Source: Octopus vulgaris (lineage: Eukaryota). From it: a DNA stretch of 64,000 nucleotides. Below are positions 16,670 through 52,654 of this stretch, piece after piece. Numbering within the stretch: position 1 is the stretch's first letter; every line of letters begins with the position of its first letter. The notes under the pieces are model-generated. The model saw only the letters and a program-made list of their open reading frames with translations, did not search any database and was not told where the DNA came from. Made by a program: the position numbers and the translations under genes. The stretch spans positions 4,278,001 through 4,342,000 of the forward strand of contig OX597821.1 of the NCBI GenBank assembly GCA_951406725.2. Direction: 5' to 3'.

Positions 16670-16895
16670 TATAAAATAATATGTACAATTACTCAATAGT
16701 CAAGATAAAACTCTGGGTTTCAGATGCCGAAGTGGAAATCCACAACACCATATCTTCGGTTATCTGGCCATCTGAAAAAACGCGTTTTTTCAGATGGCCA
16801 GATAACCGAAGATATGGTGTTGTGGATTTCCACTTCGGCATCTGAAACCCAGAGTTTTATCTTGACTATTGAGTAATTGTACATATTATTTTATA
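16670..16895. repeat. 226-bp perfect spacerless palindrome
   Basis: Centre AAAAAACGCGTTTTTT at 16775-16790; arms are reverse complements as read by eye. Confidence 0.9.
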
Positions 16896-19226: not shown

Positions 19227-19315
<89 letters not shown>

Positions 19316-19318
<3 letters not shown>

Positions 19319-19528
19319 TGAGCTGGAAGAATCGTTATCACGTCGTGCAAGGTGCTTAGTAACATTTCGACCGTCTTGACGTTCTGAGTTCAAATCCCAC
19401 AGAGGCCGATAATGCCTCTCATCCCGACGGGGTCGATGCATTAAGTACCAGTTAAAACTGGGGTCGATATAATCAACTAGTCTCCTCCCTCCAAATGTCC
19501 ATCCTTGTGCCTTTAGTAGATAGTATTA

Positions 19529-19623
<95 letters not shown>

Positions 19624-19845
19624 TGAGCTGGAAGAATCGTTATCACGTCGTGCAAGGTGCTACGTGAAATAGCTATTAAGTAGAGATCTTAAAACTTCTG
19701 AGTTCAAATCCCACAGAGGCCGATAATGCCTCTCATCCCGACGGGGTCGATGCATTAAGTACCAGTTAAAACTGGGGTCGATATAATCAACTAGTCTCCT
19801 CCCTCCAAATGTCCGGCCTTGTGCCTTTAGTAGATAGTATTATTA
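19316..19845 (+). mobile_element. Two tandem family A SINE copies (19316-19530, 19621-19845) separated by (ATT)n
   Basis: Both start CAGTGAGCTGGAAGAATCGTTATCACGTCGTGC and share private variants; period 305 bp. Confidence 0.85.
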
Positions 19846-26010: not shown

Positions 26011-26505
<495 letters not shown>

Positions 26506-26506
<1 letters not shown>

Positions 26507-27126
26507 TAAATCTCTGAACGAGGTATAAACAGTAACTGCACGACAATGTGAGGTATACTTGCCATCTCAATATGGTTAACCACTAAAGGTAGGTGTTACT
26601 GTAGCTTGTAGCCCCAGGCGAATATCGTCTCTAGTTGGCACACTTTCTGTACCCTTATGGTATTTGCAAAGGGAGGTCATCCTTCTCTCGTAAACCTAGG
26701 TGATACGCACGGACTGCAGTTTCTAGGTTTTGACCTGTCATCAGCGTACGACAATCACCGGTTTTCAATGAAAGGGGTCCCAATGCAAATACTTATATGG
26801 TTTTTCCAGTAACTTTTCGTCACTGATCTCGACAAAACTATATGCAAGCAATAATAAATCTCTGAACGTAGTATAAACAGTAACTGCAGGACAATGTAAG
26901 GTATACTTGCCATCTCAATATGGCTAACCACTAAGGGTGGGTGTTATTGTAGCTTGTAGCGTACGACAATCACCGGTTTTCGATGAAATGGGTCCCAATG
27001 CAAATACGTAAAGGCACAGAAAATGTGCCTAATGCCAGCTGGAGACGATGCTCTCCTGGGGCTACAAGCTACAGTAACACCCATACTTAGTGGTTTGCCA
27101 TATTGCGATGGCAAGTATACCTAACA
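26506..27126 (-). mobile_element. Retrozyme-like repeat: one full 348-bp unit, one internally deleted unit and an inverted segment
   Basis: TCTCTGAACG at 26511 and 26859; homologous to 51613-52188; contains an HHR. Confidence 0.75.
26699..26759 (-). ncRNA. Type I hammerhead ribozyme with canonical core
   Basis: GGUGAU-UGU-CGUACG-CUGAUGA-CAGG(UCAAAA)CCUA-GAAA-CUGCAG-UC/CGUGCG-U-AUCACC: two-part stem I, palindromic stem III, GUC site between 26712 and 26711. Confidence 0.85.
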
Positions 27127-28438: not shown

Positions 28439-28551
28439 GGTCCCAATGCAAATACGTAAGAGCACAGAAAGTGTGCCTAATGCCAGCCGGAGACGATGAT
28501 CTCCTGGGGCTACAAGCTAGAGTAACACCCACCCTTAGTGGTTAGCCATAT
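28439..28551. mobile_element. Retrozyme-family fragment with inverted junction
   Basis: Matches about 26989-27103 including the GGTCCCAATGCAAATAC|GTAA junction. Confidence 0.75.
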
Positions 28552-29042
28552 TTGGCTCCACACACTCGCTCTGTCTTCATTGTGCACCATCATTGTCAAT
28601 GATTTATGTATTACTTTCTTATTCCTATGTATATATTATCGATGGTGACCAACTTTCAGTACGGTGCTGTCTAACTGAAGGAAATATGGGTGCCTTTTTT
28701 ATTAATATTTTATTATTGAATAATTATTGTATCTCCCGTTCACTCATATTAAAGTACATTCTGTCCTGAAGGGGGTTTAGAGAAGGAGAACGTTCCGCAG
28801 TCATTTCATCACTCCAATATCGATCGCCTTATATTCTGCTTTGTCTCCATGATTCATAGTGTGAAAAAAAGATACATTCTCAGAGTTTCATCTTATTAAC
28901 AGCTGGATATCTGATGATACTTAGAAGCGTACGATATGAATACCAGACGATTATGCAGCCCTCCTAATGACATACTAAACGGCTATTGAATAGGTACTTT
29001 AAGACACGAAACACCAGGCACGATAAGCATGCAACTACACAC

Positions 29043-50914: not shown

Positions 50915-51771
50915 CATTTACATATAAGAAAATGTCCTTATTGAGCAGGGGGGAGGGAAGCATAACTCAGTTTGTATATGCATGTACATATGTACCACTG
51001 CATCCTTGCATGTGTACCTTTCAAAATATATATGAAAGTATTTCTCATGTTGGCTCTAGTACATTGACCGTGTGTGATTCTCTCTATATATGTGTGTGTG
51101 CGTATTATATATGTACGTTTGTAAGCAAACAATCACATACACGCACCGACGTCTGCATATTAGTATATATGTATATATAAGATATGAATATCAATACAGA
51201 CCATTAAAATATCATCTGCATGACTCATTAGAATATCTATATTTGTCAAATATAGATAAGTGTACAGGAAAAGAGAAATTTTAATAACAAGCATAGATTT
51301 GAACAGAGGCGTACAAGAGCAGACTGATTTTTATGTGCATATACACTAACTCACGCTGCCTGACAGATGCACATCTATATGCAGACATTTCACATTAGCA
51401 TATACATGCACAATTGCATAATTATTTTGTGTATTGCTCTTCAAATGCGTTACTTCAATTTACTGCCAACGTGTTACTACTTGTTGACAACGTTATCGCA
51501 TTAGTAATTATCATCTGAAGCTTCCGTTAGTGTATGTATAGATTCGTATGTATATGAATATGTAAGTAATTTTTTTTAAAAATTTAGATGAAATACAATA
51601 ACAAAGTCAACGTAAAGTATACTAGCCATCTCAATATGGCTAAGCACTAAGGGTGGGTGTTACTGTAGCTTTTTAGCCCCAGGAGATCATCGTCTCCAGC
51701 TGGCTTTAGGCACACTTTCTGTGCCTTTATGGTATTTGGAAAGGGAGGTCATCCCTCTCTCGTAAACCTAA

Positions 51772-51830
51772 GTGACACGCACGGACTGCAGTTTCTAGGT
51801 ATTTGCCTGTCTTCGGCGTACGGCAGTCAC
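51772..51830 (-). ncRNA. Type I hammerhead ribozyme (U4C core variant)
   Basis: GUGAC-UGC-CGUACG-CCGAAGA-CAGG(CAAAUA)CCUA-GAAA-CUGCAG-UC/CGUGCG-U-GUCAC; site between 51784 and 51783. Confidence 0.75.
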
Positions 51831-52125
51831 CGGTTTACGATGAAAGGGAGACCTGTTTGCAAATACTTATAGGTTTTTCTAGTAACTTCCGTCACTGATT
51901 TCGAAAAACTTTCTGCAAGCAATAATAAATATCTGAACGAGATGTAAACAGTAACTGCTCGACAACATAAAGTATACTAGCCATCTCAATATGGGTAACC
52001 ACTAAGGGTGGGTGTTACTGTAGCTTTTAGCCCCAGGAGATCATCGTCTCCAGCTGGCTTTAGGCACACTCTCTGTGCCCTTATGGTATTTGCAAAGGGA
52101 GGTCATCCCTCTCTTTTAAACCTAA

Positions 52126-52184
52126 GTGACACGCACGGACTGCAGTTTCTAGGTATTTGCCTGTCTTCGGCGTACGGCAGTCAC
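52126..52184 (-). ncRNA. Type I hammerhead ribozyme (U4C core variant), second copy
   Basis: Identical to 51772-51830; site between 52138 and 52137. Confidence 0.75.
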
Positions 52185-52654
52185 CGGTTCGTTCAATTTC
52201 GCCAATATAAGATTTTTCTTGGCAACGGTGTTTATCATGAGGCAGAACGATATTAATGACTGTATACGAGAGAAAGATATAAAGACACGTTTCACATAAA
52301 TTTGTGCAAATTCTTTTCCCTGCATCTGAATTAGCGTTAACTATGAATAACGGAAGTCTTGATCTTGGACTTCATTACGCATGTTTTCTTTATTCGCCAC
52401 GAGATCTCAAAGGTATCTCATTATTTCTTTGACAAGCAGAATGTGCTTGGCATGGGATTTTTCATTGAGAAAGTCACCGTTGGTTTCAGTTGTCTTCTTT
52501 CGGATTTTTTTTACGAATCCCTATCTTCTCAGCTTCATACAGCGAAGCTCGCCACTTCCTAACTTAACAATCAAAATATAAACAAAAGGAAGAATGCAAT
52601 AAAGTGTTCTCTGCAACAGTTTATGATTCCACCAATTCGCAATACTCTATTGTA

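Follow-up and report, generated by a model that had tools for sequence, protein, structure and literature searches.

The window, by which we mean the whole 64,000-nt stretch of octopus DNA that was analysed, carries on its minus strand a short insertion that we read, with moderate confidence, as a 5'-truncated copy of a protein-free 354-nt retrozyme, inserted by a Penelope-type enzyme and copied from a circle made at other, longer loci. The genomic evidence for a Penelope-type insertion is good; the ribozyme and the circle are predicted. The class concerned, the non-LTR retrozymes of animals, is already known, and the family described here, with its altered catalytic core, is a variant of that class.

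The insertion and its hammerheads

The monomer was numbered from the base after the GUC of the predicted cut site (q1 = window position 52137; unit of 354 nt), and in this numbering the insertion (Table 1) consists of q303-354, followed by q1-354 and then q1-175. A previous reading made from the letters of the window (the sequence-only reading) had described the locus as a dimer. The two in-register hammerheads are indeed present, but the insertion amounts to 1.64 units and not to two, as positions 51836-51962 occur in it only once. Over q303-354 the two repeats (52189-52138 and 51835-51784) are 100% identical, in agreement with the two identical minus-strand type I hammerheads of that reading, and the spacing of the two GUC sites was confirmed as 354 nt. 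The window copy is one-armed, with the terminus E1, and no target-site duplication was seen at it by eye. The two units differ in 7 of the 209 columns compared, and none of these differences is diagnostic of a subfamily, a pattern that reads as for an insertion that has aged.

Table 1. Members of the retrozyme family in the window and the features recognised in them (q, position in the monomer).
Feature	Position	Strand	Details
Whole insertion	51608..52189	-	582 nt; one 5'-truncated arm, 1.64 units; ends at E1
Monomer between the predicted cut sites	51784..52137	-	354 nt; 44% GC; MFE z = -4.41
Upstream type I hammerhead	52119..52189	-	core CCGAAGA 52170-52164; predicted cut 52138/52137
Downstream type I hammerhead	51765..51835	-	identical core 51816-51810; predicted cut 51784/51783
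Stem III palindrome (CTGCAG), upstream hammerhead	52140..52145		twin at 51786-51791
Promoter-like (PSE-like) motif ATCAGTG (q239)	51885..51899	-	as at -57 to -61 of U1/U2 genes; putative internal promoter
Putative transcription start (q297)	51841..51841	-	58 nt past the motif; q294-310 duplicated where Tx1-like LINEs inserted in other copies
Internal copy of the ~50-nt 'tail' between E1 and E2 (q171-221)	51917..51967	-	
Fixed 3' end of the family, E1 (q170-175)	51608..51613	-	terminus of the window copy
Second family copy	26503..27120		two-armed, older subfamily; canonical CUGAUGA core at 26744

The description of the element as a non-coding head-to-tail repeat also stands, since the longest open stretch in a trimer of the monomer is 75 aa and there is no long ORF. 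Between 40000 and 64000, inspection of the ORFs gave simple-repeat or unremarkable frames only, by a method that could miss short exons. The hairpin arms ATGGCTA and TGTGCCT, proposed earlier for the monomer, are exact in the terminal partial unit, but each carries one change in the excisable monomer.

The core of both hammerheads reads C3 C4 G5 A6 A7 G8 A9, and a C10.1·A11.1 mismatch closes the 3-bp stem II. With these two departures from the consensus (U4C and C10.1·A11.1), the window copy does not have the canonical catalytic core. U4C cores may already be among the hammerhead variants of Penelope-like elements (PLEs) treated by Lunse et al. in 2017. U4C lowers in vitro activity strongly, yet viroid variants that carry it are reported to remain infectious (PMC3088659), and a U3-A8 pair is a known active variant of the core (PMC3088659; PMC4209133). 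The Rfam hammerhead models, which the sequence-only reading had put forward as a check, found no match in the window at the gathering threshold and none even at E ≤ 10. A relaxed type I descriptor detected three motifs in the window, the two described here and one at 26744; none of 100 resampled windows held a type I motif with a stem I of at least 6 bp, which argues that the three motifs are not due to chance.

Folding of the 354-nt monomer, likewise put forward as a check, gave an MFE z-score of -4.41. The long stem I is retained in the predicted fold, from which stems II and III are absent (pair probabilities of 0.16-0.17 and 0.00, respectively). The cross-pairing that had been proposed for the stem III palindrome CUGCAG is consistent with a predicted duplex of -11.1 kcal/mol between units, the palindrome being present at both sites. 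A weak helix III together with pairing of the palindrome between units is what defines a double hammerhead, and in the predicted structure both are found.

Four putative RNA runs gave short contigs only, made of mixed family copies; in contigs, the junction of a circular RNA would read just as a tandem junction does. The contigs of one run (X19, organism D) enter the element from either flank by 29-30 letters, where our rule required 31, which is a weak hint of the window insertion in another sample; an empty insertion site was not seen in the other-sample contigs. Read depth over 51608-51690 also includes a Helitron-like element in which this piece is present, and is confounded by it.

The retrozyme family in the octopus genome

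The dispersed family proposed by the sequence-only reading was readily recovered. An exact 29-mer has 1,229 matches in the octopus genome and none in the control, so the element is multi-copy. Exact patterns of two core types gave 135 and 356 matches, and that of the window core 103 copies, again with none in the controls. Scoring of the best 40 of 2,852 candidates (own genome, 2.8 Gb, 227 contigs) yielded at least 73 family matches. The genome also holds an ORF-less array of ten units with the core UUGACAA (L031:3264-6880, at G000:C4:13.62 Mb), in which six scored sites differ among the units in a patchwork order; this array is a candidate source locus. Among the ORFs listed at family loci, simple-repeat frames make up the majority. 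The window itself contains a second copy of an older subfamily, whose minus arm terminates at E2 and whose plus arm (26993-27120) terminates at E1, and a short third fragment of the family lies at 28441-28552.

A sister family, B, is older and about 77% identical to the family of the window (A), and shares its circular unit and its ends. The stem III palindrome is CUGCAG in family A and CUCGAG in family B. We compared 158 loci, taking one copy from each, and found the type I fold with covariation in every unit. The 3-8 pair is C-G in 101, U-A in 45 and U·G in 8 (n = 157), and the central pair of the palindrome is G-C in 130 and C-G in 20, counts that reflect a few subfamily-founding events and not independent observations. 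Stems I and II show compensatory changes on both sides, and G12, A13, A14 and U16.1 are almost invariant. Position 4 is U in 113 loci and C in 44. At 10.1-11.1, 102 loci have C·A and 42 have G-C. The covariation whose absence was to have counted against the sequence-only reading is therefore found, at the level of subfamilies (C3-G8/U3-A8; CUGCAG/CUCGAG), and the compensatory changes at the 3-8 pair and in the palindrome would imply selection for dimeric cleavage.

Ordered by distance to family B, the cores are CUGAUGA, CUGAAGA, CCGAAGA and UUGACAA. The CUGANGA core is found in the older subfamilies and in family B, which retain the C·A mismatch. A second U4C core, CCGACGA, is nearer to CUGAUGA, so that U4C probably arose twice. 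The median divergence from the own consensus is 2.2% for CCGAAGA (19 loci), 2.3-2.7% for UUGACAA, 3.2% for CUGAUGA and 4.9% for family B. UUGACAA is treated here as one group, in which the classifier labels CGTTGAC/AC and TTGACAA/GC are merged; its consensus differs from that of CCGAAGA at 7 positions in 225 nt, 6 of which are core positions.

The family resembles the metazoan non-LTR retrozymes of Cervera and de la Pena 2020 (PMC7229834), which are reported as non-coding units of the 350-nt class with a GC content under 45% and one type I hammerhead per unit, occurring as dimers to multimers, with a structured monomer and with PLEs in the same genome. The corresponding features are all found here: a non-coding unit of 354 nt, within the class range of 150-400 nt, 44% GC, head-to-tail arrays of up to 10 units, dispersed copies, and PLEs in the genome. 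The mussel units (350-390 bp) are the nearest in size. For the coral, mussel and axolotl retrozymes the same paper reports cleavage and circles as demonstrated and PLE helpers as proposed, whereas the octopus family is known from its genome sequence. Most octopus copies are dispersed and truncated on the 5' side, and many have two arms with fixed ends, a layout that we did not find described in PMC7229834; their cores include U4C/C·A and U3-A8 variants, unlike the retrozymes reported there. Neither octopus nor cephalopods are mentioned in its main text. In the literature searched, which was mostly open access and did not include Repbase or Dfam, we found no description of the octopus family or of its insertion footprint. 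A plant-type LTR retrozyme was considered and rejected, on the basis of the type I topology, where plant retrozymes have a type III hammerhead and LTRs with PBS/PPT, of arms that are circularly permuted and not arranged as LTR-internal-LTR, and of duplications of 11-14 nt as against a TSD of 4 bp.

Insertion footprint and a probable Penelope-type helper

The footprint was determined at the 85 loci that contain the first 100 of the 29-mer matches listed. Here, 89 of 98 anchored arms terminate at one of two points about 50 nt apart, E1 (q164-177) or E2 (q212-228). Back-to-back pairs of arms are present at 52 of these loci, with the ends E1+E2 in 43, E1+E1 in one and an ambiguous combination in eight. 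Two other samples, which partly overlap, have E1+E2 at 26 of 43 and 15 of 18, none being same-ended and the remainder ambiguous. At 14 of 80 loci the insertion lies between direct repeats of 11-14 nt, and many further loci are in (TA)n. No upstream body common to the 5' flanks of 56 one-strand loci was found, and LINE ends are among the few matches between them.

The family therefore shows a fixed 3' end, 5' truncation, an inverted upstream arm, a tail on one side, short duplications and AT-rich or microsatellite targets, which are the marks of PLE insertion. EN+ PLEs are reported to form partial tandems with an inverted arm that is truncated on its 5' side, to have a tail at only one of their ends and to be flanked by short duplications (10.1101/2021.04.23.441226; PMC3846280), and the octopus family shares with them also the microsatellite bias, the palindromic helix III and the U3-A8 core variant (PMC4209133; PMC3846280; 10.1101/2021.04.23.441226). 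It differs from these elements in its tail of about 50 nt, against 30-40 nt in PLEs, in its long and bulged stem I, against the minimal hammerhead of PLE pLTRs (PMC4209133), and in the lack of an ORF: the RT + GIY-YIG ORF between pLTRs that characterises an autonomous PLE is missing, and neither units nor arrays have any ORF. The octopus genome does encode RT + GIY-YIG ORFs, of 781 and 775 aa, and the family with the 775-aa ORF has the same arm layout as the retrozyme, with a tail of about 30 nt. A sensitive BLAST comparison revealed no sequence common to the retrozyme and these two PLE families; the search for a partner covered the best 150 of 6,136 GIY-YIG candidates, which were scored, and a comparison at 50 loci. 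It is the insertion footprint that makes a Penelope helper likely, and the question of which enzyme moves animal retrozymes would here find its record in the DNA itself, as Penelope-type ends, tail, inversions and duplications.

A PLE helper is also the proposal of Li, Clavereau and Pollet 2026 (bioRxiv 10.64898/2026.07.22.740005), who present vertebrate retrozymes as non-autonomous PLE derivatives. Their basis is co-occurrence and pLTR kinship in 35 species, with no mollusc among them, whereas ours is the insertion footprint; unlike for the vertebrate retrozymes of that preprint, comparison with the two young PLE families gave no sign of pLTR kinship for the octopus family. In the same preprint, eight of nine Xenopus retrozyme dimers are reported to show no in vitro cleavage and one to be active.

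Several observations were made on the PLEs themselves. The 775-aa family (L087:2582-5010; L307-L314) is very young, with 99-100% identity among 40 scored copies, and ends in (TA)n. It has a U4C hammerhead of its own in the 3' region, with the core CCGAAGA and the stem III palindrome GUAC. The second young family (L081-L086) includes many intact 781-aa RT/GIY-YIG ORFs, and our hammerhead descriptor found no shared hammerhead in it. A 76% match near the PLE at L087 was considered as evidence for a partner and rejected, as it is a separate neighbouring insertion. In a single case (L139 / L316:3390-4210), the 5' end of a family-B copy directly abuts a fragment of an old PLE RT, whose identity to the young PLE families is about 70%; a template switch between the two RNAs may have produced the junction.

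Putative promoter, template and proposed life cycle

A promoter-like motif was identified within the monomer. ATCAGT(G/C) is found at -57 to -61 in 23 of the 24 U1/U2 loci of the genome; 80 of 81 copies of family A carry it 56-62 nt ahead of q297, as do 8 of 10 copies of family B. The promoter matrix by itself is weak, with 82 equal or better sites in the window, and a search for an snRNA 3' box near E2 gave no convincing match. Taken together, the motif, its spacing and the target site of a LINE suggest a U1/U2-type promoter that would start the RNA just before the ribozyme. The LINE is Tx1-like, with RT and zf-RVT domains, and sits at q294-295 in five of the six loci fetched (L347, L348, L349, L350 and L352), with a 16-17-nt duplication; both copies of the duplicated q294/295-310 are visible in three LINE-bearing loci. 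In the single U2 gene without the ATCAGT(G/C) motif, a similar LINE 3' end (L358) is located at +1. This LINE is a parasite of the retrozyme family and is absent from the window copy.

Two known systems are comparable. Tx1 LINEs such as Keno are reported to be specific for a target in U2 genes (PMC4494074); the octopus LINE likewise inserts at a fixed site, but its target is the putative start of the retrozyme. In newt satellite 2 (cited in PMC2220036), a hammerhead with a weak, palindromic helix III is combined with a promoter of the snRNA type inside the repeat; unlike the promoter of newt satellite 2, that of the octopus element is deduced from motif, spacing and LINE target site.

The ends of the arms carry information on the template. 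Of the arms that reach the cut site, 39 of 41 pass through it and two stop within -9 to +5, so there is no pile-up of cDNA 5' ends at this site and the template must have been continuous there, either as a ligated circle or as an uncut multimer. Thirteen of 89 arms are longer than one unit, and about 30 of the 33 that reach q297 extend past it. The circle and the uncut multimer leave identical read-through patterns, and it is to these two that the question of circles is now narrowed. Independent arms at L187, L194, L199 and L284 start at one base, q348, within the stem III palindrome and 7 nt upstream of the cut, and six more of the 294 ends fall between q350 and q2; these starts are not clearly above background.

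Diagnostic differences per column amount to 0.008 between units and 0.006 between arms within a locus, compared with 0.033 between loci. Subfamily mosaics were found in 11 of 55 tandem pairs and 5 of 65 inverted pairs, and such pairs are not explained by one circle. Three two-armed loci (L229, L193 and L034) have UCGAAGA in one arm and CCGAAGA in the other, a non-CpG difference, which suggests that two different RNA templates may have been used in some insertions. The 5' ends of long arms appear enriched at q290-303, where five long arms stop, including the window copy (q303). The excess at q292-298 (14 vs 45; p = 0.001) is weak once the 5 of the 14 that are LINE insertion points are left out.

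On our preferred reading, the internal U1/U2-type promoter would start an RNA just before the hammerhead, and multimers would arise only from rare loci in which the promoter lies ahead of two hammerheads. In such multimers, two hammerheads would pair through the stem III palindrome into a double hammerhead and cleave at a slow rate, and the cut monomer would be ligated to a circle. A Penelope enzyme would then nick AT-rich or (TA)n DNA, and cDNA primed from two fixed points about 50 nt apart would give one- or two-armed copies, possibly longer than one unit. A cycle that used linear RNA only would lose one promoter in each round and a circle would not, which favours circles.

Loci with the promoter ahead of two hammerheads are indeed few (0 of 85, 1 of 80 and, in a set chosen for length, 7 of 38); they are L015, L018, L024, L029, L031, L032, L039 and L204. 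In the window copy no promoter-like motif precedes the upstream hammerhead, and the sole motif lies between the two hammerheads. As the copy starts at q303, its own promoter would start at 51841 and give an RNA with one hammerhead, so that a two-hammerhead RNA from this locus requires host read-through. The position of the promoter and the weakened U4C core make it likely that the window locus is a product rather than a source of circles, and the earlier proposal that it could excise its own monomer is not supported. This suggests that a copy with two hammerheads is not automatically a circle source and that the position of the promoter matters.

The main rival retains the same element and the Penelope helper, but takes as template a linear RNA that reads through long master loci, such as the ten-unit array, and stays uncut; the hammerhead would then be weak or tuned down, and copies longer than a unit would come from read-through and template switching, without circles. 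This rival is a serious one, if less likely than the circle. Weak cores are widespread (U4C in 44 of the 158 loci, and the 103 exact copies of the window core), a young autonomous PLE has the CCGAAGA core too, mosaic units exist, the predicted monomer fold lacks stems II and III, and the window copy with four other long arms stops near the putative start, all of which would be consistent with a linear template. However, about 30 of 33 arms pass q297 although loci able to template such arms are rare, one promoter would be lost each round, the compensatory changes at the 3-8 pair and in the palindrome would imply selection for dimeric cleavage, and related elements are reported to yield abundant circles in coral, mussel and axolotl (PMC7229834).

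It is improbable that the window locus itself acts as a dimer from which the 354-nt monomer is excised and made circular. Its hammerheads are identical and in register, with stem I and the palindrome intact, minus-strand host read-through could supply an RNA with both of them, and U4C variants of viroids are reported to be infectious (PMC3088659). Yet the copy begins at q303, which leaves its only promoter-like motif downstream of the first hammerhead, the core combines U4C with C·A, the 7 differences in 209 columns are those of an aged insertion, and the frames seen at 40000-64000 are simple-repeat or unremarkable, short exons being possible. Least probable of all, and by now largely refuted, is that the copies are only pLTR debris of an autonomous Penelope, a LINE-mobilised SINE or a plain satellite, and do not propagate by a cycle of their own: the layout does match that of PLE pLTRs, retrozymes derive from pLTRs in the 2026 preprint (bioRxiv 10.64898/2026.07.22.740005) and one family-B copy adjoins an old PLE RT fragment, but the arms stay in register through the full 354-nt period for up to 10 units with no ORF, the 56 one-strand loci have no common upstream body, the L087 match beside a PLE is a separate insertion, and two fixed ends with a tail are not features of LINEs, SINEs or satellites.

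The preferred reading, a truncated copy of a circle made elsewhere, can be extended, tentatively, to a self-propagating 354-nt circle with its own U1/U2-type promoter, copied repeatedly by a Penelope enzyme from two points, whose core would have been retuned under selection from CUGAUGA through CCGAAGA to UUGACAA. If this were true, attenuated cleavage would be adaptive in that it preserves the template, and the subfamilies would form a natural series for how the cleavage rate sets the spread of a retrozyme. In either form, a few possible source loci can be named, and natural core variants of similar age are at hand for a side-by-side comparison.

Other elements were noticed in the course of the analysis. 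The element that confounds the read depth at the window copy is about 400 bp long (L317-L346; L203:100-490), and we take it to be Helitron-like from its 5' TC and its 3' hairpin and CTAG. It carries a miniature two-armed retrozyme insertion, in which an inverted E2 arm of about 21 nt and a 61-nt E1 arm lie between direct repeats of about 11 nt, and with 3,791 exact 25-mer matches in the octopus genome (G000) it has amplified this retrozyme fragment thousands of times. A perfect 78-nt palindrome at 16744-16821 of the window scores just above the Rfam mir-9 threshold equally on both strands; a MITE-like inverted repeat is a likelier reading of it than a microRNA. A two-copy 314-bp tandem, which starts with (ATT)n, is found at 19229-19844.
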